From the NCBI GenBank assembly GCA_030583725.1, contig CP129472.1, positions 755,096-819,095 of the forward strand: DNA of 64,000 bases, read 5' to 3'. The notes beneath the pieces were generated by a model. That model was not told the origin of the DNA. It did no database searches and saw nothing but the letters and a program-made list of their open reading frames with translations. Below are positions 8,969 through 44,609 of this stretch, one piece after another (the first letter of the stretch is position 1; each line of letters starts with the position of its first letter). A program made the position numbers and the translations under genes. Source of the stretch: a bacterium (GTDB lineage Bacteria > Patescibacteriota > Microgenomatia > UBA8517).

Positions 8969-9091
8969 TTATATTTACTATAGTACTTTAAATAACACCA
9001 TTAGTCTGTAGAGTCGTCATGAGCGAATATTCATTTGATGGTTCAATTTAAGTTTATGCTAAATGATATTCCAAATACTTTGAGTTGTCTA

Positions 9092-28017: not shown

Positions 28018-28061
28018 ATTTAAAAAAATCGCCTCCTTTCACCCTTAACATTAGAATGATT

Positions 28062-28183
28062 ATAACATAACAATGTTGAAGTTCATAACATAACAATGTT
28101 GAAGTTCATAACATAACAATGTTGAGGTTCATAACATAACAATGTTGAAGTTCATAACATAACAATGTTGAAGTTCATAACAT
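28062..28183. repeat. Tandem direct repeat, 23-bp unit ATAACATAACAATGTTGAAGTTC x5 plus partial sixth copy
   Basis: Copies start at 28062, 28085, 28108, 28131, 28154 (one G variant), partial at 28177; lies immediately upstream of rpsU. Confidence 0.9.
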
Positions 28184-28189
28184 TTAATT

Positions 28190-28762
28190 TTAGATATTCG
28201 TAGGTGGTACTATATTGGAGTGGTTGTTTTTGTGGTTACTCCCGACTGTTAGATATATAGACAAAATAACTATTAAAACAAAAAGTCCAAACAAATAAAG
28301 AGCATATTCTGCAAAAAACCGATTTTGGTATTCATCTTCTTGCTTCTCAGTTTGTGTTTCAGCAATTGGTTCGATGCTAGGTGTTGGATTTTTTGTTACT
28401 TGAGGAGTTGCACTTACAGTTGCAATGGGTGTTTGGCTGGGTTTTGTTGTTGATGATGGTGATATTGTTGCCTTTGCTGTAGTTGTTGGTGAGCTACAAA
28501 CACAATCTGTTTTTTCTGCACAAATTGGATTTCTACAAAAACCTTCATGACAAAAGAGGTTGGCCTGACAGTTATAGTTACTACCACAAGTACCACCACA
28601 AAAATTTGGTTCACCTTGGGCCCTTTTGTTTAGATTGAAGTTTACATTTAAGGCTGTCCAAACAAAAAGTGGGAGTGCAATTACTGTTGCAAAAAACAGC
28701 CCAGTCAAAAGAGAATTTTTTGCAGTAGGTGGGAGGTTTTTATAGTTAAATGAAGTGGACAT
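28190..28762 (-). CDS. Membrane-anchored protein with a compact Cys-rich module (10 Cys in ~45 aa), Thr/Pro-rich linker and a C-terminal TM helix
   Basis: NFCGGTCGSNYNCQANLFCHEGFCRNPICAEKTDCVC; N-terminal signal-anchor and C-terminal hydrophobic helix. Confidence 0.4.
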   Translation of the reverse strand: MSTSFNYKNLPPTAKNSLLTGLFFATVIALPLFVWTALNVNFNLNKRAQGEPNFCGGTCGSNYNCQANLFCHEGFCRNPICAEKTDCVCSSPTTTAKATISPSSTTKPSQTPIATVSATPQVTKNPTPSIEPIAETQTEKQEDEYQNRFFAEYALYLFGLFVLIVILSIYLTVGSNHKNNHSNIVPPTNI

Positions 28763-29842: not shown

Positions 29843-30073
29843 TTTGAAGCTTCAAAAAAAGCGTAGTTCTGGATCAGGAATGTCTTTTAAAAAATTAAGT
29901 TATGCTTTTGCAATTACTGCATATTTAATTTTTTAAATCTAACTACATTCCTGACCCGTAGATCAATTACCGGATTTTCCTCTTTTTTTTCTTGTTTTTA
30001 TCTTTCCCCTTGTCTTTCTTGTTTTCAAAAGTGTTCATGGAATAAGTCTCCTTTCTATTTAGTTTTGGAGAAA

Positions 30074-30340
30074 TTAGTTCATGTCAGCCACAAGTTCTTG
30101 GATGACTTTGTGGTCGATGCCCATCCGGGTGAGCGCGTCTTTGAGATGACGCTGGAGTCTGGTTACATAATAACCTGCTACACCTTGTGGCGTGCATTTT
30201 GTAGCGGGTTCATTGTACAGATTCCATTGGCTCTGCAGGTCATTCCGAATGTAGGTACGGAATGTTGTGGTAGCACCATCTGTTGTTGCCTCGATCCTGA
30301 CTTCACCTGCACCAGACTGAACTATCACTTTGTCACTCAT
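30074..30340 (-). CDS. Hypothetical protein (88 aa) in a locally GC-enriched segment, good SD (aaggagacaac) upstream
   Basis: ORF with ~48% GC versus ~33% window background; no recognisable domain. Confidence 0.35.
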   Translation of the reverse strand: MSDKVIVQSGAGEVRIEATTDGATTTFRTYIRNDLQSQWNLYNEPATKCTPQGVAGYYVTRLQRHLKDALTRMGIDHKVIQELVADMN

Positions 30341-30408
30341 TTTGTTGTCTCCTTGTCAAAGAATTTTCTCATAGCTGAATGCTATGGGATGGTTGAGTAT
30401 AACAATTT

Positions 30409-30780
30409 TTAAGTAAATGTCAAAAGTTTTCCAGTTAGTTCCTCACCGTTTAATTCTTTCCATTTTTCAAGGAGTTTATCTTTTACAAATTTTTTATATT
30501 TTTCATCAGTCTTGCTATATTTTCTTTCCCAAGCTTTTTCTGATGCGTATAGAAAAGATTCAGACTCAGCTGTTTGAGGATTGTCTAAAATACTTTCAGT
30601 ACTTCCAAGGTATTTATCTGGGTCTTTTCCATCAAAAGTAAAAGAAATTACTACAGTTAGTTCCTCAAATATTTGATTACTCGAAGGGACAACGATATAT
30701 TGGAATGAAGCACTATCCAATATTTCAGAACGGGCAGTTGTAGCTCTCTCACCAATTGCCACAATTATATTGTAACACAT
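30409..30780 (-). CDS. Hypothetical protein (123 aa)
   Basis: ORF only; strong hairpin immediately 5' of its start. Confidence 0.3.
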   Translation of the reverse strand: MCYNIIVAIGERATTARSEILDSASFQYIVVPSSNQIFEELTVVISFTFDGKDPDKYLGSTESILDNPQTAESESFLYASEKAWERKYSKTDEKYKKFVKDKLLEKWKELNGEELTGKLLTFT

Positions 30781-30846
30781 GACAGAAGTCGGAGAAGGGG
30801 GATTTTTTGGAATCCTTTTTATTCTCTGACTTCTGTCAAGTTGCGG

Positions 30847-31029
30847 TTAGCAGCCGCGTTCTTGTGAACGGGCAATGTCGATTGCAACGAGGTATTCATC
30901 GTTGCTACCGTGCTCATTGCGCACTTTTGTTTCCAGTTCATCAAGGCTGATCGCTTCTGCAACTAATTTTTTCCCAACCTTAAGCCTGTAACAAGACTGG
31001 AACTTGTGAACTCTTATATCAGCGGACAT
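30847..31029 (-). CDS. Hypothetical small protein (60 aa), GC-enriched
   Basis: ORF only. Confidence 0.25.
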   Translation of the reverse strand: MSADIRVHKFQSCYRLKVGKKLVAEAISLDELETKVRNEHGSNDEYLVAIDIARSQERGC

Positions 31030-31146
31030 TTTAAACTCCTTTTGTTGGAATACTCAAAGCAATTTTGAGTTAGGGATATTATACTATAGGTAAATGACCA
31101 TTTGCAAGTTTAACTGGGATTTAGTAGTTGGGTGTTTTTCCTTCTT

Positions 31147-31342
31147 TGCACCAATCTATGATTTAGCTCGAAAATATTTTATATCAAATTTTTAAGCGAG
31201 CAACAAGGGAGGGGTTAAAGGGGAAGGAATTGTTGCGAAGCTTCGTGTTTCCTCGCTCAGCCACTTCGTGGCTTCGCTAACACACCTGCAAAGCTCGAAG
31301 CTTTGCGCTCACCCCACTTCGTGGGGTTCGCTAACCCAATTG
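31147..31342. repeat. IR-A left copy: 196-bp GC-rich sequence that recurs as a perfect inverted copy at 38571-38766; outer terminus TGCA
   Basis: Base-by-base reverse-complement match over all 196 bp; contains internal direct repeats (ccacttcgtgg..ttcgctaac x2) and palindromes (cgaagcttcg). Confidence 0.95.
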
Positions 31343-31800
31343 AAAGGAAAAGGGGTTTTGTAGTCAGTCGCTTGCGAGCGCCTGACGAAAGTGCCCTTGC
31401 GGTATACCGTAAGCACCTTTACAAAATCCGCAATCGTGTCGTATTATAGGGCATATTGCGGAGTTGCGGTACTGCGGTTGCCGTTGCGGTCACCGCAAGT
31501 CCACATATGAACACAAAAACTAATCCAAACCTATTTTTAAAAGATTTCTAATGTATCATTTCAGTCACAATCTGTCCAACAGGGACAGCTAAACCAAGTG
31601 CTGAAAACAGAACAAGGTGCTTGCGCACAGCACTTGGTTAGAAGACAGGACAACAGAACCATTGCTCCTGAAATATTCCCTTAACAGGGAATCCTGCCCA
31701 GCACAAAGCACCCCAAAGCTACAGGGGTGATGGCTTACGCCATGTGCTAGGCAGGAGAACAAAAACACACCAGCACATACTATTTTTGGTGTTATAATCT
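31343..31800. other. ORF-free, GC-enriched, hairpin-dense stretch with clustered TTGCGG/CCGCAA repeats; candidate structured ncRNA, iteron/centromere-like array or recombinase-binding region
   Basis: No ORF >=60 aa on either strand; TTGCGG repeats at ~31397-31490; perfect 10-bp stem ccaagtgctg...cagcacttgg at 31607-31650; several further 5-7 bp stems. Confidence 0.5.
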
Positions 31801-31807
31801 TAATGTT

Positions 31808-32689
31808 ATGTTTTTACAGAAATCAAAGGAGAATGCATTTATACTAGCAGTTATTGCTGCTTTTTGTGGTGGTTCAATAGTTGTTGCGGCTAAAATTGCA
31901 CTAGAAGTTTTTCAACCATTTACAATAGTTTTTATTAGATTTCTATCTGCTACATTATTTTTAATTCCATTAATTGTTAGGGCAAAAGAATTCAAAGTTT
32001 CTACAATCAAAAAGTTTATACCAATTGGAATAGTTGGAGCATTAAATCCAATACTTTTATTTATAGCTTTACAATACACCAAGGCTTCAGTTTCACCATT
32101 AATATATGCAAGTGTTCCTGCAATGACCGCTGTTTATGTTTATTTGGTTAGAAAAGAAAAAATAAGTAAACAAAGTATATTTGGAATAATTATTGGTTTC
32201 ATAGGAGTTGCACTTATTATTCTTCTCCCACTTATTGAAAAGGGTGTTCCACTAGTTGCATTGAAAGGAAATATCTTAATTTTTGGGGCAGCCATAGCCT
32301 TTATGTATTACGGAATAATGAGCAAGAAACATCAGAATGAGATGAACGCATCTCCAATTGTATTAACCTTTTATTTTGCTTTGGTAACTTTATTTTTGAG
32401 TATACCGTTTGCAATTAATGAAGTTAGAAACGGATTTCTTGGAACGGTTGAGTTAAAACATATATTGGCTGGGATTTATACAGGAGTTGTAGGAACAGGA
32501 ATATTTTATCTTGCTTACCAATATGCTTTAAAGCTTGGATCAGAAATTGCAGCAAATTTATTTACATATTTACAACCAATAGCAACAATTTTACTTGCCT
32601 CACTCTTTTTAGGAGAGAGAATAACGATACCTTTTGTTATCGGTGGTTTGTTGGCAGTAATTGGAGCCAAGATTGCTTCGAAAAAATAA
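31808..32689 (+). CDS. EamA/DMT-superfamily transporter (10 TM)
   Basis: Two ~140-aa repeated 5-TM halves, typical EamA organisation. Confidence 0.75.
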   Translation: MFLQKSKENAFILAVIAAFCGGSIVVAAKIALEVFQPFTIVFIRFLSATLFLIPLIVRAKEFKVSTIKKFIPIGIVGALNPILLFIALQYTKASVSPLIYASVPAMTAVYVYLVRKEKISKQSIFGIIIGFIGVALIILLPLIEKGVPLVALKGNILIFGAAIAFMYYGIMSKKHQNEMNASPIVLTFYFALVTLFLSIPFAINEVRNGFLGTVELKHILAGIYTGVVGTGIFYLAYQYALKLGSEIAANLFTYLQPIATILLASLFLGERITIPFVIGGLLAVIGAKIASKK

Positions 32690-33497
32690 TATATATTGCT
32701 TCTTAATTTCCACAGGTCTAATATTTAAATATACCCTCATGGAAGAAGATGTTTTAAGTCAGATTAAAAGTGAGAATGCAAAGAAACAAACAAGAAGTAG
32801 CAGTGGTAAGTTTGTTGCAAAAGATGATCCAACAAAACTTCCTCCAATCTCAGTATCAGTTAATAATCCAACTTCAGTAAATACAACAACTCCACCTGAT
32901 CTAGTTAATCTAAAAGTAACTAATCCACTTGTATATATTAAATACTGGTGGAAAAGAATAATGGCAAATGAAGGTATTGAAGTTAAGTTTAAAGCAAAAC
33001 CACTAACTGTGTTTGGTGTTGCCTTAATTGGATTTACACTTCTCTTTGGTATTGGTGGAGTTGTTCTACCTATTTTCTTTCCTTGGATGAAGTTTAATAA
33101 TTCTATAATCTCAACTCCAACAAATACCCCAACTCCAGAAATTTTAAAAGATACTGCACTTAAAGGAATACTAACAAAAACAAATACTAATCCTGTTAAA
33201 TTCTATTTAATCACTACCTCAACAGAAGCAGTAACTTTAGAAATACCAGTTGGTTTTAATTTAAATACTCTAGTTGGAAAAAGGATCTTAGCTGTAGGTA
33301 CATATGATTCAAAAAACAAAATACTTGAAGTTGAAGATATACAAGATTTAGAAGTACTTTCAACAACACCAGTACCAATACCAACAACAACTCCAACACC
33401 AAAACCAACTGAAACTCCTATTCCTACAATTGCTCCAACCATGGTTCCAACTGTAGAACCAACGATTGCACCAAGTGAAGATCCAATAAGTTTATAA
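32661..33497 (+). CDS. Membrane protein with a C-terminal Pro/Thr-rich repeat tail
   Basis: Central TM helix (PLTVFGVALIGFTLLFGIGGVVLPIFF), C-terminal TTPVPIPTTTPTPKPTETPIPTIAPT...; start uncertain (overlaps EamA end). Confidence 0.4.
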   Translation: MEPRLLRKNNIYCFLISTGLIFKYTLMEEDVLSQIKSENAKKQTRSSSGKFVAKDDPTKLPPISVSVNNPTSVNTTTPPDLVNLKVTNPLVYIKYWWKRIMANEGIEVKFKAKPLTVFGVALIGFTLLFGIGGVVLPIFFPWMKFNNSIISTPTNTPTPEILKDTALKGILTKTNTNPVKFYLITTSTEAVTLEIPVGFNLNTLVGKRILAVGTYDSKNKILEVEDIQDLEVLSTTPVPIPTTTPTPKPTETPIPTIAPTMVPTVEPTIAPSEDPISL

Positions 33498-33534
33498 ACT
33501 TGCGTTTTTAAAGTCTCTATCCTATAATATACGT

Positions 33535-34095
33535 ATGACAGATATTTTAACTTTCTCGCCTGGTCCAAAGGAGCTAATTGAAAAAGCTTCAAATAGACTG
33601 ACACAAGAAAATGCTGATAAATTTGCCGTAGACAAACCGTTAAATGATGATTTTTTGATATCTTTTACGGCAAGGACACTTCTTGAATTTGACGATGGTG
33701 ATCTTGAACTGAGGATATCCCTTACACAATACAAAAAAACTGGTGAATTAACACAAGAAATATTACTTCAGGAGCCACATGGTAAAAAGTTATATAGATT
33801 AGACATTAGCTCAAGTCCAAAAAAAGACGAAGAAAAATCAAGAATGACATCGTTAGCTAATGAAATGAGCGATAAAAAAGGGACTTCTGCTCTTTCAAAA
33901 ATGCTTTCAGATACTTTTGGCACATCTGGTAATACAACTGTTTCGAGGATGGACAATTGGGCAGAAACTAACATTACTACAGATAGTGCAAGACAATTAA
34001 TAGAAATTGGTACACCTAAGCTACCTGAAGATGCTCGAATAACATTGTTGGAATTTAGACAAAAAGTAGGCCAAAGTTTTCCACTTCTAAAGTGA
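33535..34095 (+). CDS. Hypothetical protein (186 aa)
   Basis: ORF only. Confidence 0.35.
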   Translation: MTDILTFSPGPKELIEKASNRLTQENADKFAVDKPLNDDFLISFTARTLLEFDDGDLELRISLTQYKKTGELTQEILLQEPHGKKLYRLDISSSPKKDEEKSRMTSLANEMSDKKGTSALSKMLSDTFGTSGNTTVSRMDNWAETNITTDSARQLIEIGTPKLPEDARITLLEFRQKVGQSFPLLK

Positions 34096-34098
34096 CAT

Positions 34099-34674
34099 TT
34101 ACACTGCAGAATTTAGAAGTTGATATACAGCCTGTCTTAATTCTTTATTTCCATACCCACTAACTGAATTTTCAGGTTTAGATTCTATTGCATCTGCAAA
34201 CTTCATCATCTCATCAAGCTTGTTGTGTTTTTGTGCAAGTCTTAATTGTCTAACCGTTGCAAATACATGATTCCACTTAACATTTGATGTATTGATTGAC
34301 TTTGTAATTCCAAGTTCTTTTGATTTTCCAAAAGCTATTGGATGATCTTTATCTGACGCTGTTAAATCAAGTGCTGATTCAACTGATTCATGTTCTAAAG
34401 CAAAATCAACTAAATCATCCGGGACTACATCAGTGCTTATCATTGGTAGCTTGTATTTGACAGCAATAATTGCTCCACAACCTTTAAGACCTTTACTGTA
34501 TGTTGTCCAACCTGAAACTATTGGAAGTCTATGGAATCTACCTTTTATGTGTTCGTATGAACCAACAAATGCATCTTTTCTTCTTTGTTCCACTCTTTGT
34601 TCTAAATCATCAGGAAGTCTTAAGATTTCATCTATTTTTTGAATATTCATTATTTCACGAGTAGTACTTTCCAT
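34099..34674 (-). CDS. Hypothetical protein (191 aa), translationally coupled downstream of the PfkB kinase
   Basis: ORF; 1-nt spacing to the upstream kinase gene. Confidence 0.35.
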   Translation of the reverse strand: MESTTREIMNIQKIDEILRLPDDLEQRVEQRRKDAFVGSYEHIKGRFHRLPIVSGWTTYSKGLKGCGAIIAVKYKLPMISTDVVPDDLVDFALEHESVESALDLTASDKDHPIAFGKSKELGITKSINTSNVKWNHVFATVRQLRLAQKHNKLDEMMKFADAIESKPENSVSGYGNKELRQAVYQLLNSAV

Positions 34675-34675
34675 G

Positions 34676-35560
34676 TTAAATTAGTTTTTTAATTTCTTCT
34701 ATCGAATTATCAACCCCTTGATATTTAACTGATTCAGTTGCAATTTGAAGTGCTTTTTTAATGCTTTGGTCAAGATCATTTGTTTTTATATATTCAGAAA
34801 GGAATACTCCTCTGAATATATCTCCTGATCCTGTAGCATCAACTGCGGTTATAGTTTCTGTTGGATAGTGCTTTGGTTCTTTATCAAAAACAACACAGCC
34901 ATCAGTATCAAGAGTAATTATTGCAATACCATCTGTGAAGCTTTTTAATTTAGTAACAGCTTCTAATGCTTCATAAATAGTTGTTATTTTTATATCTAAA
35001 AGTAATTCTGCTTCTTGTCTATTAGGAACTACAAAATCTACAGTTTTAAGTTTTTCTTTATCAAACTCTTTTTGTTGATTTGGAAAATCTAAAAATACTT
35101 TTACATTATCTTTGTTTGCTCTTTCTATCATTTTATATATTTGATCTAACTTCATACTTGTTGCCATATATAAATATTCATAGCCTGAAAGGTTTTGAAG
35201 TTTTGATTCATCAAAAAAGTTAATTGCGTTAAGATTAAGAACAATTGCAGACTGACCATCTTTATCAGTTAATACTAAAACTTCTGCAGTTGGAGATTCA
35301 GAAGTAGTGTATACAAGTTTGGTATCAATACCATATTTTTCTAAATCTGAAATTGCTTGTTTTCCATTGTTATCATTTCCAACAACACCAAACATTGAAA
35401 CAGAATTGCTAGAAGCCAAAACTCTACCTGCATTTATTATCTTGCTACTAGTTAATGTGTTTACAGAGTTAACAAAGCCAACCTCATTTGCGTGAGGTAC
35501 ACTATCCATTAAATATTGTTTCTCTGCACAAATTTCTCCTGCTAGTAATATCTTTGGCAT
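34676..35560 (-). CDS. PfkB-family carbohydrate/nucleoside kinase (ribokinase-like)
   Basis: C-terminal VDATGSGDIFRGVFL matches the PfkB DTxGAGD signature; N-terminal GG-containing substrate motif. Confidence 0.7.
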   Translation of the reverse strand: MPKILLAGEICAEKQYLMDSVPHANEVGFVNSVNTLTSSKIINAGRVLASSNSVSMFGVVGNDNNGKQAISDLEKYGIDTKLVYTTSESPTAEVLVLTDKDGQSAIVLNLNAINFFDESKLQNLSGYEYLYMATSMKLDQIYKMIERANKDNVKVFLDFPNQQKEFDKEKLKTVDFVVPNRQEAELLLDIKITTIYEALEAVTKLKSFTDGIAIITLDTDGCVVFDKEPKHYPTETITAVDATGSGDIFRGVFLSEYIKTNDLDQSIKKALQIATESVKYQGVDNSIEEIKKLI

Positions 35561-35637
35561 ATGATGTCTGAATTATAGCAAAACAAACCTTTATGAACTA
35601 TAATGGGTTCACTGCCCTTAACTAAGGCGGTTTTTTT

Positions 35638-38007
35638 ATGGAAACAATACTTAAATATAAAATCAAAACAGATTTCAGAAATCAAAAATCTGTAAAGACA
35701 GATAAAAGTAATTTTTTAGGTAGAGAAAAATTGATTAGAAGGTTTTCTAATATTGCTGAGAATAGAGTTTCTTCAACTGTATTGATTGGAGGTGCTAGAG
35801 GCATTGGTAAGACATCGTTTGTCAGAGAGGCTTTGTCTATGAACAACTCTTCAATTCCTAAAATTGTTATTCAAATTAGTTTGGCAGAAGTTGATCCAGA
35901 AGATAAAGATATTAGAAAAACAATTTTGAGCACATTAATTCGTGGATTATATTTTGAATTGAAAAATAAAAATAATGGAGATATTTTAAAGGATCCAGAG
36001 CTGTCAGATTCAATTGAGGATTTGTACGAAAAAACATATTATTCAGAGTTTGAGAAAAAAGACTTTGCTGAATTGGTTGCAAGTGTTAAGCAAAGTCAAG
36101 AACAAAAGAGTATTGATGAGAAGAAGTATCATTTTGAATTTGGTAGTGCGATAAAAACTTTGTTAAAGGCAACAATTGGAGCTTTGACAATAACTCCATT
36201 TCTTACAACAATATTAGTTTTGCAAATACCATTATGGGCGGCGATTACACTTTTCTTTTTAGGTCTTGCGTTCTTATTCTTAGTTTTATCAGTAGATGTG
36301 AACATTGTGCATTCAACAATATCAACTGAAGGAATAATGGAAAAGGTTGATTCAAAGTCACAAAAAACCGGTATTGCCAAGTTAGATATATCATCAAATA
36401 CTTTAGAGATTGGTCTAAGACAAATATTACTTAATTTAAGTGATAAAAAGCAGAAAGTTATATTTGTTATTGACGAGTTAGACAAGTTAGATGGCGGCGA
36501 TAGTCCAGATGTGAAACTTGAGGATCACTACATATATAAAGTAATCAAACCTCTAAAAAATCTATTTACCTTGTCAGGTGCTGTATTTGTGTTTATTGTA
36601 AGTAATAGCTTTTACTATGCGGTTACAAAAAAGAAAAAAATTGATCCGTATTCGACATTTCATACATTATTCACAGATCGAATATTTCTAGACCCGTTGT
36701 ATTACAAAGATATCGAACGAATATTGGATAGCTACGTTGATGGTGAAATTGATAAAAGTTATAAAGACGATTATTTCAAATTCAGATACTATGTTAGTTG
36801 GTTAGCTAAAAATCATATTTTTGATCTTCATAATATTGTTGAAAATTTTATTGAATATGAAAATAAAAACACAACAGTACATTTATATAAAGGTAATAGT
36901 GAGGCAAATGGAAGCATAGAAGAAAGATGGGAAGTTGCTTCAGCATTGCAAGTTTTCTTATCTGCTACATTTGATGAAAAATCGTATCCTGCCGATAGTG
37001 AGATGAACGAGCAGTTGTACTTAACTTTACGTCAAGTTGCTGAAAAATTATATTCCGATTTTTACATTGAAGTTAGAGACAATAAATTTATAGATATACT
37101 ATCTGAGAGCGAACAGAAGCAATTAAGACTTGATGTTCTTGATATCAAATCTAAAGAAGATATATCAGGTTCAATAGAAGATATGCTTTTGAGAATGGAA
37201 AGAGTGGATAAATATTGCTTGTTAGTATCAGGTCAGGAAGACGAAGATACTGTCGATGAGTCTAATCCAGAAGGTGAAAAGGAGAAGAAAAGCTATATTT
37301 ATTTTTCGCTGGTTGATAATGACAAATTTCCAGTTATTGATGAGGTTAGAAAAACTAACGCAGTCACGACATACGAGGAGGAATTTATTAAAAAATACAA
37401 TTTACTAGGTTCATCTAAATTAAATCTAGAAAATATTGATCTTCAGACATTTTCTGTTTACGATGGAGAATATAAAAAATTCAGCCAACTTGCGACTAAG
37501 ATTATCAATAATAAACCTAGAAATGAACGGAAAAGCCTAGTCCTAGAGTACTCAAAACGTATTGAGGAAATACAAAACGCTTTATACGGCAACTCTATTG
37601 ACGATTTATTGAGCAAACTAATGAAAGAGGACAGTGGGCTTACAAAATGGGATATCGGATCTGGCAAAACTGGAGTACCACTCTGGGATGCTGATGCTCC
37701 ATTGTCAAAGTTTTATCAAGAATTGCATAATAATACTGATCTGGAATATGAATCTGACTATGTTATCATTCATGACGAAAGTCAAAATAGATACACAGTT
37801 CTTGGGTTTGGTTTGGATACAAAAATTCAAGACATATACAGTTCAGTAAATCGTTTTTATAGATTCAGAAGAACAGAAACAAGAGTTATAAATTTAACTG
37901 GCGTAAATACAAATAATAAAAATATTTGGAAAGTCGTAAATTCTAAAGATGATCTATCGCATCTAAAGGAATATGACAGAGAACTCAGAAGCAGATTTAA
38001 TCTTTAA
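35638..38007 (+). CDS. KAP-family-like P-loop NTPase (PifA-like) with two TM helices inserted between Walker A and Walker B, long C-terminal region
   Basis: Walker A LIGGARGIGKTSFV, inserted hydrophobic hairpin (ITPFLTTILVLQIPLWAAITLFFLGLAFLFLVL), Walker B VIFVIDELDKLD; 789 aa. Confidence 0.6.
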   Translation: METILKYKIKTDFRNQKSVKTDKSNFLGREKLIRRFSNIAENRVSSTVLIGGARGIGKTSFVREALSMNNSSIPKIVIQISLAEVDPEDKDIRKTILSTLIRGLYFELKNKNNGDILKDPELSDSIEDLYEKTYYSEFEKKDFAELVASVKQSQEQKSIDEKKYHFEFGSAIKTLLKATIGALTITPFLTTILVLQIPLWAAITLFFLGLAFLFLVLSVDVNIVHSTISTEGIMEKVDSKSQKTGIAKLDISSNTLEIGLRQILLNLSDKKQKVIFVIDELDKLDGGDSPDVKLEDHYIYKVIKPLKNLFTLSGAVFVFIVSNSFYYAVTKKKKIDPYSTFHTLFTDRIFLDPLYYKDIERILDSYVDGEIDKSYKDDYFKFRYYVSWLAKNHIFDLHNIVENFIEYENKNTTVHLYKGNSEANGSIEERWEVASALQVFLSATFDEKSYPADSEMNEQLYLTLRQVAEKLYSDFYIEVRDNKFIDILSESEQKQLRLDVLDIKSKEDISGSIEDMLLRMERVDKYCLLVSGQEDEDTVDESNPEGEKEKKSYIYFSLVDNDKFPVIDEVRKTNAVTTYEEEFIKKYNLLGSSKLNLENIDLQTFSVYDGEYKKFSQLATKIINNKPRNERKSLVLEYSKRIEEIQNALYGNSIDDLLSKLMKEDSGLTKWDIGSGKTGVPLWDADAPLSKFYQELHNNTDLEYESDYVIIHDESQNRYTVLGFGLDTKIQDIYSSVNRFYRFRRTETRVINLTGVNTNNKNIWKVVNSKDDLSHLKEYDRELRSRFNL

Positions 38008-38048
38008 CCTTTATTGAAAATTAGATATATAAGGTGTAAAAATAATTA

Positions 38049-38567
38049 ATGTCGAATAACAAATTTGTTTTAGTCCCAGTTGATCTTCTTAAAAATTTAA
38101 GAGAATTATCCAAAGGCACAGAATATGAAGACGAAGTCAAAAAAGTTTTAGACTCAAGGGAAGCCATAGAAAATCATGATATTACAAAATTACCAAAGTC
38201 TGCAGTAGTTAAAAGAGTGATAGATGGAGACACTGTAGAGTTATTTAACGGTACTGTTCTTCGCTACACAGCAATTACAGCACCAGAAGATGGAGAATCA
38301 TTTGCAGAAGAAGCTACTAAGTTAAACCAAGAATTAGTTGAAGGCAAAGAAATTAAACTTGAATATGACAACTACACCTCTGACAAATTTGGAAGAATTC
38401 TTGCATATCCAATCATAGACAACAAAAATATTTGTATTGAACTTGTTTCAAAAGGTATGGCTGAATTAGTTATTTACCAAAAAAGAAAGCCATTTATTCA
38501 TCAAGTTCAATTATTAGAAGCACAAGAACAAGCAAAGAAAAACAAACAAGGAATTTGGAAGAACTGA
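38049..38567 (+). CDS. Staphylococcal-nuclease-like (thermonuclease/SNase) domain protein
   Basis: VIDGDTVEL...RYTAITAPE...GRILAY... matches SNase catalytic core (DGDT / R..IDaPE); 172 aa. Confidence 0.7.
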   Translation: MSNNKFVLVPVDLLKNLRELSKGTEYEDEVKKVLDSREAIENHDITKLPKSAVVKRVIDGDTVELFNGTVLRYTAITAPEDGESFAEEATKLNQELVEGKEIKLEYDNYTSDKFGRILAYPIIDNKNICIELVSKGMAELVIYQKRKPFIHQVQLLEAQEQAKKNKQGIWKN

Positions 38568-38570
38568 ACA

Positions 38571-38766
38571 CAATTGGGTTAGCGAACCCCACGAAGTGGG
38601 GTGAGCGCAAAGCTTCGAGCTTTGCAGGTGTGTTAGCGAAGCCACGAAGTGGCTGAGCGAGGAAACACGAAGCTTCGCAACAATTCCTTCCCCTTTAACC
38701 CCTCCCTTGTTGCTCGCTTAAAAATTTGATATAAAATATTTTCGAGCTAAATCATAGATTGGTGCA
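38571..38766. repeat. IR-A right copy (perfect reverse complement of 31147-31342); begins 3 nt after the SNase stop codon; outer terminus ...TGCA
   Basis: 196/196 identity to the left copy in inverted orientation. Confidence 0.95.
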
Positions 38767-38827
38767 TACCCCCGACCTGTCGGGGTCGAGCGAAGCGAAG
38801 ACCACGACTTTTGCCCATCCCCTCGGA
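38763..38827. repeat. IR-B left copy: 65-bp GC-rich sequence, perfect inverted partner at 40363-40427; shares the TGCA terminus with IR-A right copy (4-nt overlap)
   Basis: tgcatacccccgacctgtcggggtcgagcgaagcgaagaccacgacttttgcccatcccctcgga is the reverse complement of 40363-40427. Confidence 0.95.
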
Positions 38828-38912
38828 CAAAACAAAACATCAAAACAAACACAAATTGATATTATTTGATATCTTGATACGTATTATTTACGGGCGTATA
38901 AATAATATTGGT

Positions 38913-40526
38913 ATGACCAATATTGTAAATGATCCTTCTCAAGATAGATATTTTATATACGCTCGCAAGTCTACGGATGTGGAAGATAAACAGGTTCAAT
39001 CAATTGATGGACAACTTGAAGAGTTAAGGTTACTTGCCAAGAGAGAAAATCTGATTGTTGTAGATGAACTTATTGAAAAACAATCAGCTAAAATTCCCGG
39101 AAGACCTGTGTTCAATAAAATGCTTGATAGGATTGAGAAAGGTCAGGCTTCAGGGATTCTCTCTTGGCATCCAGATAGACTTGCTCGTAATTCTGTTGAT
39201 GGAGGAAAAATAATCTTTTTTGTAGATACAGGAAAGATATCTGCCCTCAAATTTAACACCTTTTGGTTTGAACCCACTCCTCAGGGTAAATTTATGTTGT
39301 CAATTTCGTTTGGACAATCGAAATATTATGTGGATTCTTTAAGTGAAAATACTCGTCGTGGGTTACACCAAAAAGCTAGAAATGGATATTTCCCAGGAGT
39401 AGCGCCTTACGGTTATTTAAATGATTCTCGCAATAAAACGATTGTTGTAAATAAAAAAGTTGCTCCTGTTATTGCTAAGGCTTTCGAAATGTATTCTGAG
39501 GGAAATATCCAATTAAGTGATGTTGGTAGCTTTTTGGAAACGCAAAAGGTGTTAAATACACAAGGAAGGAGAATTAGAGACGATCGTGTTAGAAAGATAC
39601 TAAAACAACCATTTTATTGTGGCTTGTTCGAGTATTGTGGAGAAGTGTATGAGGGCAGACATGATCCAATAATTTCAAAGAAACTTTTTGATAAAGTCCA
39701 AGATGTTCTAAAAATGAGAAATAAACAATGGAGCAAAGCTGTTGTTGAAAGAGTTCATAAACCTTATCTTGGACTTTTTAGGTGTGGTGAGTGTGGTATG
39801 GCTATAACAGGAGATATCAAAAATAAGTTTTATCCAATAAAAAATCGTCACGCTAGTTATTGTTATTATCGTTGTACTAAAAAGAATAAAAACATCTCCT
39901 GTAGCCAACCACACATCACTGAAAGTGATTTGGATAAATTACTCACCACACATATCAAAAAGTATTCTTTGAAAAAGATTTACGCAAATCAGATGCTTTC
40001 TAAACTAAAACAAGAGGAATCTGATATTGCTAAATCTTGCCTTGATGCTATTAGTATCAAGAGAAAGGATTCGGAACAAATAGACATTAAAATAAAATTA
40101 CTTCTTGAAAGCTATTTAGATCAGATCATTGATAAGCAGACTTTTCAAGAAAGTAAGCTGGATTTAATGTCTAAAAAGAAAACAATAGAGGAGCAAATCC
40201 TTTCTCTTAAAAGGAATCAAAATAATTGGATCGAACCTTTTAAAAACTGGATAATTGAAGCTAGTAGAGTAGATCAAATAATATCAACTAATGACAAAGA
40301 TGCCAAAAAGGTACTCGCCGAAAAAATTTTCGGCTCGAACTTGTTAATTGAAAACAAAAAACTCCGAGGGGATGGGCAAAAGTCGTGGTCTTCGCTTCGC
40401 TCGACCCCGACAGGTCGGGGGTATGCAAGGGTGGATAGAATCGAACTATCATTACCTGTTTTGGAGACAGGAGGCCTACCATTGACCGACACCCTTATAT
40501 ATTTGGAATTATATCAATTATGGTGA
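38913..40526 (+). CDS. Large serine recombinase (resolvase catalytic domain, recombinase domain, zinc-ribbon, coiled-coil tail)
   Basis: N-terminal YARKSTDVEDKQ (Y-x-R-x-S-T-x-x-Q nucleophile motif), zinc ribbon CGECG...YYRCTKK; ATG at 38913 preferred over the TTG at 38811 that lies inside IR-B; the 3' ~55 codons are encoded by IR-B' and the antisense of tRNA-Trp. Confidence 0.85.
   Translation: MTNIVNDPSQDRYFIYARKSTDVEDKQVQSIDGQLEELRLLAKRENLIVVDELIEKQSAKIPGRPVFNKMLDRIEKGQASGILSWHPDRLARNSVDGGKIIFFVDTGKISALKFNTFWFEPTPQGKFMLSISFGQSKYYVDSLSENTRRGLHQKARNGYFPGVAPYGYLNDSRNKTIVVNKKVAPVIAKAFEMYSEGNIQLSDVGSFLETQKVLNTQGRRIRDDRVRKILKQPFYCGLFEYCGEVYEGRHDPIISKKLFDKVQDVLKMRNKQWSKAVVERVHKPYLGLFRCGECGMAITGDIKNKFYPIKNRHASYCYYRCTKKNKNISCSQPHITESDLDKLLTTHIKKYSLKKIYANQMLSKLKQEESDIAKSCLDAISIKRKDSEQIDIKIKLLLESYLDQIIDKQTFQESKLDLMSKKKTIEEQILSLKRNQNNWIEPFKNWIIEASRVDQIISTNDKDAKKVLAEKIFGSNLLIENKKLRGDGQKSWSSLRSTPTGRGYARVDRIELSLPVLETGGLPLTDTLIYLELYQLW
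40363..40427. repeat. IR-B right copy, terminus ...TGCA overlapping the 3' end of tRNA-Trp
   Basis: 65/65 reverse-complement identity with 38763-38827. Confidence 0.95.
40426..40496 (-). tRNA. tRNA-Trp (anticodon CCA)
   Basis: Hand-folded cloverleaf: acceptor AAGGGTG/CACCCTT, anticodon stem CCTGT/ACAGG with loop CTCCAAA, T-arm GATAG-TTCGATT-CTATC, discriminator G; 71 nt. Confidence 0.75.
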
Positions 40527-40816
40527 TAGAATAGCTAGTTCATATGATAAAAGAAGGATTACTGGTTCCATGCCCTTTTTTTGCTGGTAAATATTGTAGC
40601 GAAGGTTGTTCAAATTTTTACAATGTTTTAGTTGCAACAGCAGAAGAGGCAAGTAATAGAGATGCAAGTTTTGTTCAGGTTGTTGAGGAGATTGTAAACG
40701 CAAGCAACGCAGAAGTGTCTTCGAGGCGAATGACCCTAAAGCATTTAGAAGCTTCTTCACAATGCGATAACAACATGAAGCATTGATTTGTCTAAAAGAC
40801 TATTATAACATCAGAT

Positions 40817-41119
40817 ATGGCTGATAAAAAGGTTGATACAGCAGATACACTTCGTTCAACTAGTGGTAAAGGCTCTTTCGTAAAAGCAACTAAACATGAG
40901 GGTGGGGATACGCGCGGTTCTTGGGAAGACAAAATTGATGCTAGGATGGAGAAAAGTGGGTATATTGCAGGACTAATTGCTAAGAAGTTCGCAGACGAAG
41001 GAATTATAACCATAAATGAGGACGGCAAGACGTTTCACATAGGTGGGGAATATGGCGGCGAAGTTTACAAAATTAAGATGCTTCCACTTGTTTGGGCCGC
41101 CTTGAAAAAGAAAAAATAA
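40817..41119 (+). CDS. Hypothetical small basic protein (100 aa)
   Basis: ORF only. Confidence 0.35.
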   Translation: MADKKVDTADTLRSTSGKGSFVKATKHEGGDTRGSWEDKIDARMEKSGYIAGLIAKKFADEGIITINEDGKTFHIGGEYGGEVYKIKMLPLVWAALKKKK

Positions 41120-41120
41120 C

Positions 41121-41306
41121 TTATTTTAATTTACTTGTTTCTTTGTGAAGTGTTTGTTTTTTGCAGGTTTGACACCATTTTTTAAGTTCAAGTTTACCTT
41201 TACCTTTTGTATCCATATTGACCTTGTTCCTGTCAGTCACATAATTTTGTGATTTACAGTCAGGACAAATCATTCCTACAATTTCTCTTGCTCCCTTTTT
41301 TGCCAT
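41121..41306 (-). CDS. rpmG: 50S ribosomal protein L33 (zinc-ribbon type)
   Basis: MAKKGARE..CPDC....Y.T.KNK.....L.LKK.C..C start/spacing typical of L33. Confidence 0.75.
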   Translation of the reverse strand: MAKKGAREIVGMICPDCKSQNYVTDRNKVNMDTKGKGKLELKKWCQTCKKQTLHKETSKLK

Positions 41307-41348
41307 ATGACAAGTATTCTAACATATAGTAATCTATGTTTGAAGATG

Positions 41349-42575
41349 CGAATTTGGTTTGTTTCAACAAGGATAGCTGGCAACGATGGAGTATCACTTG
41401 AAGCTGTTAGGTGGCGTACAATTTTAACTAGAATGGGCCACAAGGTTACTTTTGTTGCTGGGGAGTTAGATAGGGCAGGAATTTTAATACCAGAGCTTCA
41501 TTTTAGTAACGAATCTGTCATAGATCTTCATGATAAAGTTGTTTTTAGTAAAAATCATTTTAAAGAAATTGAGGCAGAAGTTTTTGAGTTTGCTGGGAAA
41601 ATAGAAGGAAAGCTTCGAGAAGCCTTTAATGGCCATAGGCCTGATATGATAATAATTGCAAATTGTTTATCACTTCCGATGCATTTTCCATTGGCAGTTG
41701 CACTAACTCGTATTATTGAAGAATTTAAAATTCCAACTATAGCAAGACATCATGACTTTTGGTGGGAAAGAAAAAGATTTTTAAAATCCTCTTGTTTTCC
41801 ATTTTTTAAACGTTGGTTTCCTCCGAATAGCTCATTCGTAAAACATGTAACTATAAATACAATTACCCAAAAACAGTTAAAAGAAAAACTGGGGATTAAC
41901 TCATCTGTGATACCTGACACATTTGATTTTGTGGGGACAACAAACAAAGGAGATAAATTTAACAGTACATTTAGAAAAGACTTTGGAATTGCTAAAGATG
42001 ATATTGTGTTTTTGCAAGCTACTAGAATAGTTCCCAGAAAGAGAATTGAAATATCTATTGAACTTGTTAAAAAATTAAATAACCCAAAGATTGTTTTGGT
42101 TGTTGCAGGTAGAGTTGGGGATGAAGGTAGAGATTACTTTGAAAAACTTGAGTCTTTGGTTGCAAAATTGAAGGTAAGAGTCGTCTTTGTGGGTGATTAT
42201 ATTGATTTTAATAGAAAATTAACAGGCAACAGAAAGAAAATTTATACTCTTTGGGATGCATTTATCTCAGCTGATTTTGTTACTTATCCTTCTGAAGTTG
42301 AGGGGTTTGGAAATCAATACATAGAAAGTATTTATTTTAAAAAGCCAGTAATAATTACACCTTACCCGGTATATAAATCTGACATTAAACCATTAGGGTT
42401 TAAATCAATTGAAATAAGTGAAAATTTAAGTGTCAAAGACATAGAACGGGTGAGAACCTTCTTGGAAGACAAAGAAAAAGTTAAAATTATGGTTGAAGAT
42501 AACTTCAGTCTTGGGAAGGCACATTTTTCATACGAAGCTACTGGAAAAAAGATAGGGGATCTTCTCGCAAGATAA
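41349..42575 (+). CDS. Glycosyltransferase, GT4-like (glycosyl transferase group 1 fold)
   Basis: MRIWFVS... N-terminal Rossmann start; C-terminal ...YPSEVEGFGNQYIESIYFKKPVII motif typical of GT-B retaining transferases. Confidence 0.55.
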   Translation, partial: RIWFVSTRIAGNDGVSLEAVRWRTILTRMGHKVTFVAGELDRAGILIPELHFSNESVIDLHDKVVFSKNHFKEIEAEVFEFAGKIEGKLREAFNGHRPDMIIIANCLSLPMHFPLAVALTRIIEEFKIPTIARHHDFWWERKRFLKSSCFPFFKRWFPPNSSFVKHVTINTITQKQLKEKLGINSSVIPDTFDFVGTTNKGDKFNSTFRKDFGIAKDDIVFLQATRIVPRKRIEISIELVKKLNNPKIVLVVAGRVGDEGRDYFEKLESLVAKLKVRVVFVGDYIDFNRKLTGNRKKIYTLWDAFISADFVTYPSEVEGFGNQYIESIYFKKPVIITPYPVYKSDIKPLGFKSIEISENLSVKDIERVRTFLEDKEKVKIMVEDNFSLGKAHFSYEATGKKIGDLLAR

Positions 42576-42585
42576 ATATAATTTG

Positions 42586-42657
42586 AGCCTGAGAGAGGAA
42601 TTGGACCTCCGACCCCCAACTTACCAAGTTGGTGCTCTACCACTGAGCTACCCAGGC
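42586..42657 (-). tRNA. tRNA-Thr (anticodon GGU)
   Basis: Acceptor GCCTGGG/CTCAGGC, D-arm GCTC-AGTGGTA-GAGC, anticodon stem CCAAC/GTTGG with loop TTGGTAA, T-loop present; 72 nt. Confidence 0.8.
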
Positions 42658-42682
42658 TTATGTTACACTAGGATTATACATT

Positions 42683-43561
42683 ATGAATGATATTATTTCT
42701 GCCATAGTTATTTTCTTCTTATCACTTATACCTAGTAATTCAAATATTGATAATATGTTAAAAAATCCACAAACGACCATTCTTTTTGTGGGGGATATAA
42801 TGCTTGGGAGGTCTGTAATGGGTGAGGCTATTGATAAAAATGATTATTTATATCCATTTAGAAACGTCCAAGGTTTTTTGGCAGATGCAGATATCACTTT
42901 TGGCAATCTTGAAAATGCAGTTATTAAAGACTGCCCCAGACAGTACAAGGGAAGCTTTTCATTTTGTACTACTCCAGAAATTGCAAAAGGTTTACAGGAA
43001 TCAGGTGTTGATATTGTAACGCTTGCTAATAATCACAGTTATAATTTTGGTGTTGATGGCTTTGAAGAAACAAAACAGAATTTGAATAATTTAGGAATAA
43101 AGTCAGTTGGATGGGGAAACCTAGAGATAATTGAAAAAAATGGAATAAAATTTGGATTTTTAGGATTTGATTATGTAACTTCAATTAAAAACATTGAATC
43201 TGACTTAAGCTTGATTAAAGAGTCAAACCAAAAAGTTGATCTATTAATTGTTAGTCCCCATTGGGGAGAGGAGTACAAAGCAGTAGCAAATAAGTTTCAA
43301 GTTGAGACAGCCAGAAATATGGTTGAGAGCGGTGCAGATTTAATAATTGGCCATCATCCTCATTGGGTGCAAAATTATGAAGAAATAAATGGGGTGCCAG
43401 TATATTATTCTTTAGGCAATTTTATATTTGATCAGATGTGGAGTGAGGAAACTAAAAAAGGTCTTCTTGTCAAATTTACTTTTGAAGATGGCAAGATAGT
43501 AAATAGGCAAGAGTATAAAACATATATTTCAAAAATTGGCCAACCAGAAATTTTAAAATAG
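42683..43561 (+). CDS. CapA/PgsA-family metallophosphoesterase (poly-gamma-glutamate synthesis/capsule protein CapA-like)
   Basis: FGNLENAV, LANNHSYNFG, GHHPHWVQ, SLGNFIFDQ motifs of the CapA calcineurin-like fold. Confidence 0.7.
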   Translation: MNDIISAIVIFFLSLIPSNSNIDNMLKNPQTTILFVGDIMLGRSVMGEAIDKNDYLYPFRNVQGFLADADITFGNLENAVIKDCPRQYKGSFSFCTTPEIAKGLQESGVDIVTLANNHSYNFGVDGFEETKQNLNNLGIKSVGWGNLEIIEKNGIKFGFLGFDYVTSIKNIESDLSLIKESNQKVDLLIVSPHWGEEYKAVANKFQVETARNMVESGADLIIGHHPHWVQNYEEINGVPVYYSLGNFIFDQMWSEETKKGLLVKFTFEDGKIVNRQEYKTYISKIGQPEILK

Positions 43562-43582
43562 TTTATTAACTATCCGAGTCTG

Positions 43583-43665
43583 TGCCAAGTCTAGGATTCG
43601 AACCTAGGTAGCCTTACGGCGCGAGTTCTACAGACTCGTGTATTTGACCACTCTACCAACTTGGC
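43583..43665 (-). tRNA. tRNA-Tyr (anticodon GUA), long variable arm
   Basis: Acceptor GCCAAGT/ACTTGGC, anticodon stem CGAGT/ACTCG loop CTGTAGA, 14-nt variable arm, T-arm CTAGG-TTCGAAT-CCTAG; 83 nt. Confidence 0.8.
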
Positions 43666-43689
43666 AAAAAACTGACAGATTGTATTATA

Positions 43690-44478
43690 TCAATTCTCCC
43701 AGTCTTCTACTAGGTCTTTATAATTTGACTTGATTTCTAGATATTCTTTTTTAGTTATTAAATCTAGTTGTATCTTTGGAAATCGTTCTCTAAACGTTTT
43801 ATCTCTCATTAACGAGTATTCATTCATAAAGTTTTTGACTTCGACATATGTTTTAAATTCTGAAAGGTAAAAATCAGGTCTATAGGTATGTTTTCCTAAA
43901 TCAAACAGACTTGGAGCATATTCCCATTTTAAACCAATTAAATTGTATATTCTTGCCACATTTGCCTCCCAAGTGCTATAGAAATTTATTGTTGGACTAA
44001 TGTCGATTCTGATACCATTTTTGCCTTTTGAAGCTTTTGGAGAAGTAGTTTTTCTTCCAAGTCTGACTATATTGCAATGGATGCTACAATATTTTTGAGT
44101 TTTGGCTAGGTATGGGACTAATTCAAAGGATTTATGACAATTAAGACAAACAATTTTAATTTTGGGTTTAGAAAAATGTTTTCCTCTCAGTCGGTTTGGT
44201 AGTGCCTTCAATGTTTTAGATATTTTCATTTTGGTAGATTCGGACATTTTTCTACCCGTATTGTTTATGAGTGCAGAGCAACGCTGAGAACAATACGTCT
44301 TGTGGTCATATGGTTTTACTAAAAATTTATTGTTACAGTTGGTTCTTTTGCAAGATCTAGTGACTAAAGCTTTAATTTTGTAGTTATAGATACCTGCTGC
44401 CCAATTCCTTTTTGAGATTTCCGATTGTTTTTTCTTATATTCAGGATCGGTGTAAAAGTCATCGGCAGAGGATGTCAT
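43690..44478 (-). CDS. Zinc-finger (2x CxxC...CxxxC) protein with C-terminal PD-(D/E)xK nuclease-like motif; homing-endonuclease-like
   Basis: CKRTNCNN...CSQRCS and CLNCHKS...CSIHCN ribbons; C-terminal YRPDFYL....YVEVK resembles the PD..(D/E)xK core of Vsr/DUF559-type nucleases. Confidence 0.45.
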   Translation of the reverse strand: MTSSADDFYTDPEYKKKQSEISKRNWAAGIYNYKIKALVTRSCKRTNCNNKFLVKPYDHKTYCSQRCSALINNTGRKMSESTKMKISKTLKALPNRLRGKHFSKPKIKIVCLNCHKSFELVPYLAKTQKYCSIHCNIVRLGRKTTSPKASKGKNGIRIDISPTINFYSTWEANVARIYNLIGLKWEYAPSLFDLGKHTYRPDFYLSEFKTYVEVKNFMNEYSLMRDKTFRERFPKIQLDLITKKEYLEIKSNYKDLVEDWEN

Positions 44479-44537
44479 AAATAAAATATATGCCGAAATT
44501 TATACGAAGTCAATACCGAATTGTAACCAAAAATTTG

Positions 44538-44609
44538 AGCCTCCTAGCCGAAATCGAACGGCTGTCGACGGTTTACAAAACCGTTGCTCTACCATTGAGC
44601 TAAGGAGGC
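44538..44609 (-). tRNA. tRNA-Thr (anticodon UGU)
   Basis: Acceptor GCCTCCT/AGGAGGC, D-arm GCTC-AATGGTA-GAGC, anticodon stem ACGGT/ACCGT loop TTTGTAA, T-arm AGCCG-TTCGATT-TCGGCT; 72 nt. Confidence 0.8.

Follow-up and report, generated by a model that had tools for sequence, protein, structure and literature searches.

We analysed a 64,000-nucleotide (nt) stretch of the chromosome of a Patescibacteria bacterium (contig CP129472.1 of assembly GCA_030583725.1, positions 755,096 to 819,095 of the forward strand), which we refer to as the window, and in particular two neighboring genes on its + strand. The first gene (35638..38007) encodes a 789-amino-acid (aa) membrane P-loop NTPase of the KAP type, and the second (38049..38567) encodes a 172-aa, cytoplasmic protein with the staphylococcal nuclease (SNase) fold. 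An earlier note on this DNA had proposed that the two form a defence module, with the NTPase as sensor and the nuclease as effector. We compared both genes and their surroundings with those of other genomes; loci are labelled L001 and onward and proteins P0001 and onward. Together, the comparisons indicate that the two genes are neighbors by accident. The KAP gene is probably a single-gene antiviral candidate, and the SNase gene appears to be a resident of the edge of a variable chromosomal slot.

The 789-aa protein contains a Walker A motif (GGARGIGKTS, residues 51-60, codons 35788..35817) and a Walker B motif (VIFVIDELDKLD, residues 274-285, codons 36457..36492, with the core VIFVIDELD at residues 274-282), as the earlier note had read them. 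Pfam KAP_NTPase matches residues 44-320 over profile positions 19-189 of 293 with 26.8 bits (E 3.8e-6), and four relatives that were tested score 28.5-45.3 bits; the gathering cut-off of this model is 20 bits. Transmembrane (TM) topology was judged from helices in an AlphaFold2 (AF2) model and from Kyte-Doolittle hydropathy. The AF2 model made from the family alignment (pLDDT 77, pTM 0.69) places helices at residues 170-194 and 199-216, between the two Walker motifs, and hydropathy at this position peaks at 1.6-3.5 in 14 of the 14 aligned family members. This two-helix hydrophobic insertion (residues ~170-216, 36145..36285), which the earlier note had also predicted, matches the description of the KAP family (Pfam PF07693) in PMC13552941, which cites Aravind et al. 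2004, as P-loop NTPases with TM helices inserted between Walker A and Walker B. These data support the KAP assignment, which is marginal by score and appears clear by topology. 

The word-indexed search for relatives returned 18 proteins, 14 of them full length (764-789 aa, 30-58% identity). In the alignment of these 14 the Walker A residues G52, R54, G55, G57, K58, and T59 and the Walker B residues F276, D279, E280, L281, D282, and K283 are invariant, as are many positions in the C-terminal region (residues 366-789, 36733..38004). The close family keeps this region throughout, and no known domain is recognised in it. Modelled alone, it gave a confident structure (AF2 pLDDT 84, pTM 0.82), and its 424 residues had no Pfam domain and no significant match among PDB structures (best Foldseek E 0.31). 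Foldseek searches of the PDB with the NTPase model matched NTPase cores only, all of the P-loop/AAA+ type: ClpY, RADAR RdrA, Cdc6/Orc1, archaeal ATPases, and MuB. When 1.84 billion representatives were searched with the family profile, 1605 clusters matched at E ≤1e-3, falling to 154 at 1e-30; most of them share just the N-terminal 400-470 residues. The KAP-like family is rare and patchy, occurring in Patescibacteria, Saccharibacteria, Actinomycetes, Gammaproteobacteria, Caldisericia, DPANN, and Thaumarchaeota. Distant relatives of its N-terminal module occur in the archaea Iainarchaeum, Nitrosopumilus, and Nitrososphaeraceae (among L014, L024, L025, L056, and L072) and in many bacterial phyla, which indicates that this module has spread widely by horizontal transfer. 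No relative was found by tblastn in 72,556 plasmids, 50,697 phages, or IMG/VR. In one independent assembly (L011), the encoded protein (P0001) is 99% identical to that of the window, with 23 nt and 4 aa differences and a dN/dS of ~0.05. As judged from this comparison, the KAP gene is intact and under purifying selection.

The earlier note had likened this protein to PifA, the founding KAP member, which is encoded by the F plasmid and excludes phage T7. The two are similar in length (740 aa for PifA versus 789 aa), match the same Pfam model, and are each encoded by a single gene on a mobile or variable element. However, PifA scores 148.5 bits with KAP_NTPase compared with 26.8 bits for the window protein, and their C-terminal regions are unrelated. 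When PifA was aligned with the KAP family profile using hhalign, only the P-loop aligned (61 columns, probability 30%), and PADLOC gave no PifA match for the window protein. With this and the lack of plasmid matches in the tblastn search, the label PifA-like is too strong, and we take the protein to be a KAP-type NTPase that has no closer likeness to PifA.

The second gene begins shortly downstream. Its product matches Pfam SNase with 66.2 bits (gathering cut-off 21 bits) and S. aureus nuclease structures with an E value of 9e-16, so that both domain assignments of the earlier note pass the profile searches that it had named as a check. Like other members of the staphylococcal nuclease/thermonuclease family (PF00565), it has the characteristic fold, the DGDT motif (D21), R35, E43, and R87. 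It departs from them in lacking a signal peptide, in carrying 50 additional residues at the N-terminus, and in having Thr in place of the Ca2+ ligand D40; classical Ca2+-dependent activity is uncertain. We found 897 homologues at E ≤1e-3, and the best 120 of these (P0019-P0138) are 82-94% identical to the window protein and, where named, come from Microgenomates, Woesebacteria, or Patescibacteria. All 120 keep DGDT, R..(I/V/M)TAPE with the D40-to-Thr change, and D(K/N)FGR, and all have the N-terminal extension; a signal peptide was found in none. For this lineage, so high a protein identity among sequences from many samples is unusual. An exact-match look-up of the window SNase returned no contig.

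The KAP and SNase genes are on the same strand and are separated by a spacer of 41 nt (38008..38048) with no terminator-like site in it. This arrangement is what one would see if the KAP NTPase were a sensor or switch and the SNase an effector that degrades DNA, the two making up a two-gene defence system. Other points in favor are that the adjacency is also present in L011, that the SNase matches the PADLOC profile SNc+LTD (2.9e-11), and that a protein lacking a signal peptide acts inside the cell. We examined this by surveying KAP relatives; scans of species-representative genomes and JGI metagenomes after the word-indexed search yielded 141 further loci. Using tblastn with the window SNase, we found no SNase-fold open reading frame (ORF) within ~10 kb in 151 other KAP-like loci. 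A profile hidden Markov model built from 47 diverse SNases likewise had no matches in the 11,307 ORFs of L001-L152, with positive controls recovered in 4 of 4 cases. Besides the window, tblastn detected the combination in L011 alone, and L011 is not an independent occurrence; it is the same element, with 96% nt identity over window positions 34689-38225 and the order PfkB-KAP-SNase kept. To the left of the PfkB gene the sequences are unrelated (L011 positions 1-749 versus window 34099-34688), and L011 has a 209-aa ORF on the + strand in place of the window's 191-aa ORF, which is on the - strand and is translationally coupled to PfkB. The slot is thus mosaic even between close strains.

Results from the neighborhood survey were similar for partners in general. 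Among 36 non-redundant KAP-relative loci (two genes on either side, 113 neighbors compared all-against-all), no partner is conserved, and gene tables around five close relatives contain no nuclease partner. The SNase is found without a KAP gene in at least four other contexts (L153, L154/155, L156-160, and L210/211), and its near-identical homologues number in the hundreds compared with 18 KAP matches. In addition, it is inside the spacer, at ~38031, that the variable cargo gives way to the conserved block with the SNase. Homology with L154/L155 starts at 38031, just 18 nt before the SNase start codon, and homology with L153 starts at 38036. A scan of 35400-39000 for promoters and terminators found sites to be no more frequent than in shuffled sequence. 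The neighborhood comparison that the earlier note had suggested thus goes against the pairing it had put forward, with the very outcome, no co-occurrence in other genomes, that the note had named as a refutation, and we consider a two-gene KAP-SNase system very unlikely. That note was aware of no described pairing of this kind; our literature search agrees, finding no paper that names KAP together with SNase in defence, and the present data suggest that this is because the pairing is not a system. We conclude from these comparisons that the two genes appear to be independent.

To gain a better understanding of what surrounds the SNase gene, we compared the window with L154, a 745-kb contig that is syntenic over rplA, rplK, nusG, secE, and the epimerase/GDP-mannose dehydratase genes, and again from the SNase gene onward. 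After the SNase, a 2-kb stretch of L154 is 88% identical to window 38568-40519 in blastn alignments and is followed by tRNA-Trp. By contrast, the interval between the dehydratase and SNase genes is 5.5 kb in L154 and 8.2 kb in the window, and the two have essentially nothing in common. From these alignments and the gene tables, we define a variable region, or hotspot, from the GDP-mannose dehydratase gene to the SNase gene (29850..38030). The genes upstream of the SNase differ in each context: a 521-aa unknown and a mad1-like helix-turn-helix (HTH) gene in L154; genes for type I/IIG restriction-modification (R-M), a Cas4-like PD-(D/E)XK protein, His_Phos, and FtsK_gamma in L156-160; a PDC-M36A-like gene (1.4e-25) in L153; and a CapP-like M78 peptidase gene (2.5e-28) in L210/211. 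These comparisons indicate that the slot next to the SNase is variable and defence-prone, with the KAP gene as its occupant in the window genome. A prophage origin was rejected; IMG/VR holds no KAP relative, and the SNases there are distant (≤41% identity).

This variety raises the idea that the locus is modular, with the conserved SNase serving as a shared downstream effector and the swappable upstream genes as alternative sensors or regulators that use it. Candidates for this would be KAP in the window, the 521-aa unknown with the HTH protein in L154, FtsK_gamma in L156, and the CapP-like peptidase with a 134-aa unknown in L210. The upstream gene is close and co-directional in four of five contexts (41 nt in the window, 35 nt in L154, a 4-nt overlap in L156, and 173 nt in L210), the genes upstream often match defence profiles, and the family-wide D40-to-T change together with the conserved 50-aa extension suggests a regulated, non-classical SNase. 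However, the gene upstream of the SNase in L153 is divergent, KAP relatives function, or are at any rate found, in loci that lack an SNase, and a core gene at the edge of a hotspot would yield the same pattern without a functional link. The genes that come after the SNase, NUDIX and Ham1 in L153 and Ham1 in L210, speak for nucleotide housekeeping. We therefore think a shared effector improbable. The same low probability applies to an extended form, in which the D40T-type SNase is the shared effector or anchor for swapped sensor genes and the recombinase cassette described below mediates swapping or inversion of the cargo. We favor the idea that the SNase gene, which is strongly conserved, resides at the right edge of the slot and marks it, and is not a partner of KAP. 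Because NUDIX or Ham1 genes follow it in two other genomes, its role is probably in nucleic-acid or nucleotide housekeeping; alternatively, it may be linked to the recombinase cassette.

The neighborhoods of KAP relatives also bear on what the KAP gene may do. One close relative is adjoined by EcoRI R-M and HAD genes, and a further one lies beside an MvaI/BcnI R-M system with a LexA-fused methylase. In L005, a large serine recombinase and SocA_Panacea genes are beside the close relative, and L007 has two large serine recombinases, Terminase_2, and an ADP-ribosylglycohydrolase. Families that recur among the 113 neighbors include N6_Mtase, HSDR_N, Methylase_S, Eco57I, EcoRI, R.HinP1I, HEPN_AbiU2, HepT, and NYN, and recurring PADLOC profiles include mad2/mad5 and type I/II/IIG R-M. 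Taken together, these neighborhoods are what one typically sees around a gene that stands alone within defence islands.

A comparable gene type has been studied by experiment. Using small serine recombinases as bait, PMC13552941 (PLoS Biol 2026) identified single KAP P-loop NTPases that block phages, with PifA as the sole older example of an antiphage KAP protein. The proteins tested there (EF_KAP and three from metagenomes) combine TM helices with a C-terminal region to which no function is assigned, and protection needs Walker B and the C-terminal region and does not occur by abortive infection (PMC13552941). The window protein resembles them in being one polypeptide with a KAP P-loop and internal TM segment and a long C-terminal region without matches. 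A serine recombinase gene lies nearby in a variable region here as well, but it is a large one, and the marker in PMC13552941 is small. The window protein differs in its Patescibacteria host and in its two TM helices, both of which lie within the insert and not at the N-terminus; for EF_KAP this comparison is with its published description.

It is also conceivable that the KAP-like protein is not antiviral and is instead a membrane NTPase for exclusion or entry control of conjugative DNA, for membrane signalling, or for maintenance of the element. PMC13552941 states that the KAP family was first proposed to regulate membrane-associated complexes and that phage exclusion may not be the primary role of PifA. 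One close relative lies near TraG/VirD4-like, SLT, and HTH_17 genes, and the window protein is without a PADLOC match. By contrast, R-M, abortive infection (Abi), and toxin-antitoxin (TA) genes and recombinases recur beside KAP relatives, and all four of the tested proteins that combine KAP with such a C-terminal region protected against phages (PMC13552941). We regard a non-antiviral role as unlikely, albeit the least so of the alternatives considered here.

The right side of the slot is bounded by repeats and a recombinase gene. Long inverted repeats (IRs) with perfect arms occur just twice in the window, and we call them X/X' and Y/Y'. The 196-nt arms of the first lie at 31147..31342 (X) and 38571..38766 (X', which begins 4 nt past the SNase stop codon) and enclose the genes from EamA through SNase. 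A repeat search placed the 65-nt arms of the second at 38763..38827 (Y) and 40363..40427 (Y'), where they enclose a large serine recombinase gene on the + strand (38913..40526, likely true start ATG 38913), 0.9 kb downstream of the KAP gene. The recombinase has Resolvase, Recombinase, and Zn_ribbon_recom domains (75, 51, and 40 bits, all above the Pfam cut-offs). Y' abuts the 3' end of a tRNA-Trp (CCA) gene on the - strand (40425..40496, from tRNA annotation). The recombinase ORF runs through Y' and antisense across this tRNA gene, so that its last ~55 codons are made up of the repeat and the tRNA gene (40363-40526).

Perfect repeats of this kind (196 and 65 nt) commonly break or misjoin metagenomic assemblies, and the contigs of L160 and L210/211 end at or near inverted repeats. 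The IR-bounded arrangement of the cargo could thus be an assembly artefact caused by the repeats. However, sequence like X' follows the SNase, or an SNase-NUDIX-Ham1 group, in L153, L154, and L156, and the order SNase-X'-Y-recombinase-Y'-tRNA is reproduced in these independent assemblies, just as PfkB-KAP-SNase is in L011. Flipping the segment between identical arms would also leave the KAP-SNase adjacency unchanged. An artefact is, to our minds, scarcely credible and the least probable of the explanations considered.

The cassettes themselves vary. In L154 (11233-12897), Y/Y' are 66 nt long and 100% identical, X/X' are ~88% identical, and X is on the other side of the recombinase. In L153, the cassette is beside tRNA-Arg. 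The L156 cassette (7825-9470) has 94-nt perfect IRs and its recombinase on the opposite strand, with a second IR pair of 77 nt around a 289-aa gene. L156 and L157 share a stretch of 7828 nt at 99.96% identity that ends at the outer IR edge; past this edge they have different recombinase cassettes. A simple inversion between L156 and L157 was rejected on this basis, and a single X-X' inversion does not turn the window arrangement into that of L154. The cassette looks like a self-contained mobile or invertible unit, and the comparisons indicate that it is an exchangeable one inserted beside SNase-X'. The earlier note had described the cargo as recombinase-associated and bounded by IRs. This holds in the window, but its enclosure by X/X' is not conserved in the sister genomes.

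The adjacency of SNase and recombinase resembles that in parCBA of RP4/RK2, where parA encodes a recombinase and parB a nuclease (PMC7314908). ParA differs in being a small resolvase, and the SNase and recombinase genes of L153 are separated by NUDIX and Ham1. These intervening genes, together with the different cassettes that L156 and L157 carry next to an identical SNase flank, argue against a fixed functional pair of SNase and recombinase. RP4 ParB is itself a putative homologue of SNase. The locus can also be compared with hotspots flanked by core genes and islands marked by recombinases (PMC10250203; PMC10121019; PMC13552941). As in those, there is a variable slot between conserved genes that often holds defence genes, with a recombinase at the edge by a tRNA. 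The differences are that the host is a Candidate Phyla Radiation (CPR) bacterium, that an SNase and a hairpin-rich repeat form the right anchor, that the recombinase has its own perfect-IR cassette, and that much of the cargo is metabolic or transport-like.

X starts a conserved non-coding block of ~620 nt (31147-31764), which is richer in GC and in hairpins. It is conserved at 80-84% nt identity in L154 (14680-15279) and L153 (9010-9567), more than the flanking ribosomal-protein and nusG genes (77-78%), and L154/L155 contain a partial third copy (window 31557-31762). The block is always just upstream of an array of genes on the + strand, and its first 196 nt are an inverted copy of the sequence after the SNase. 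Neither the repeats nor the block had a match in Rfam at gathering thresholds or at E ≤1. The block could be a structured RNA or a promoter or leader module.

We find it reasonably probable that the KAP gene is a stand-alone defence or conflict module carried as exchangeable cargo and that the SNase is an independent, resident edge gene. This keeps the part of the earlier note that saw defence in the cargo, for which the neighbors of KAP relatives and PMC13552941 speak where KAP alone is concerned, and drops the KAP-SNase module. In the mechanism we propose, the two-helix hairpin between Walker A and Walker B would tether the NTPase to the membrane, so that its core and the 424-residue C-terminal region both face the cytoplasm. 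The C-terminal region may sense a cue derived from a phage or another mobile genetic element (MGE), and NTP binding and hydrolysis would in turn power a switch in conformation or oligomeric state by which infection is blocked at the membrane or close to it, with no need for a nuclease partner. The gene would be exchangeable cargo in a slot at ~29.85-38.03 kb, between conserved genes of a Microgenomates/Woesebacteria-like Patescibacteria chromosome. The SNase would mark the right edge, followed by the hairpin-rich X' and then by the IR-flanked recombinase cassette, presumably inserted by the tRNA 3' end.

Several observations weigh against this interpretation. The KAP score is marginal and other P-loop models score similarly; the 789-aa protein also passes AAA_16 (33.8 bits, cut-off 32.6 bits), and NCBIfam gives a weak similarity of the Orc1/Cdc6 type and nothing else. 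PADLOC returned nothing significant for the protein, the best profile being PDC-S27 (E 0.003). The recombinase that served as a marker in PMC13552941 is small, and that of the window, like those in L005 and L007, is large. The slot is not purely a defence island, since most of what it holds besides KAP looks metabolic or transport-related (EamA, PfkB) and its other genes had no PADLOC matches. The short co-directional spacer means that KAP and SNase may be co-transcribed here. Lastly, we infer the antiviral role of the KAP family from sequence and context.

Other features of the window lie in or near this region. A 278-aa ORF within the slot (32661-33497) has no Pfam or PADLOC match and contains repeated Thr/Pro-rich coding units (direct-repeat family D2, 32869-33410), which suggests a surface protein or one rich in linkers. 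Left of the slot, between the rpmG/secE/nusG cluster and an ORF at 28190-28762, there are six tandem copies of a 23-nt unit, ATAACATAACAATGTTGAAGTTC (28039-28199). To the right, a cluster of tRNA genes (Trp, Thr(GGT), Tyr, and Thr(TGT), all on the - strand; 40425-44609) is interleaved with protein genes on the + or - strand: rpmG (41121-41306), a GT4 glycosyltransferase gene (41307-42575), PGA_cap (42683-43561), and an unknown (43690-44478). Since rpmG and tRNA-Thr are adjacent in L154, the glycosyltransferase gene of the window looks like an insertion.

The negative result on the pairing removes a false NTPase-nuclease system from the list of candidates and illustrates that adjacency to a nuclease can merely mark the edge of a hotspot. 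If the locus did turn out to be modular around the SNase, it would be a previously undescribed platform for the capture of defence genes in CPR bacteria. On the interpretation that we prefer, the slot anchored by the SNase and recombinase could be used as bait in looking for more defence genes among Microgenomates. The 424-residue C-terminal module, which is confidently modelled and without a structural relative, is a candidate for a new effector or sensor. If the KAP-like gene is antiviral, defences made of a single KAP NTPase would extend to the ultra-small Patescibacteria, a group with a poorly known immune repertoire and uncultured phages.

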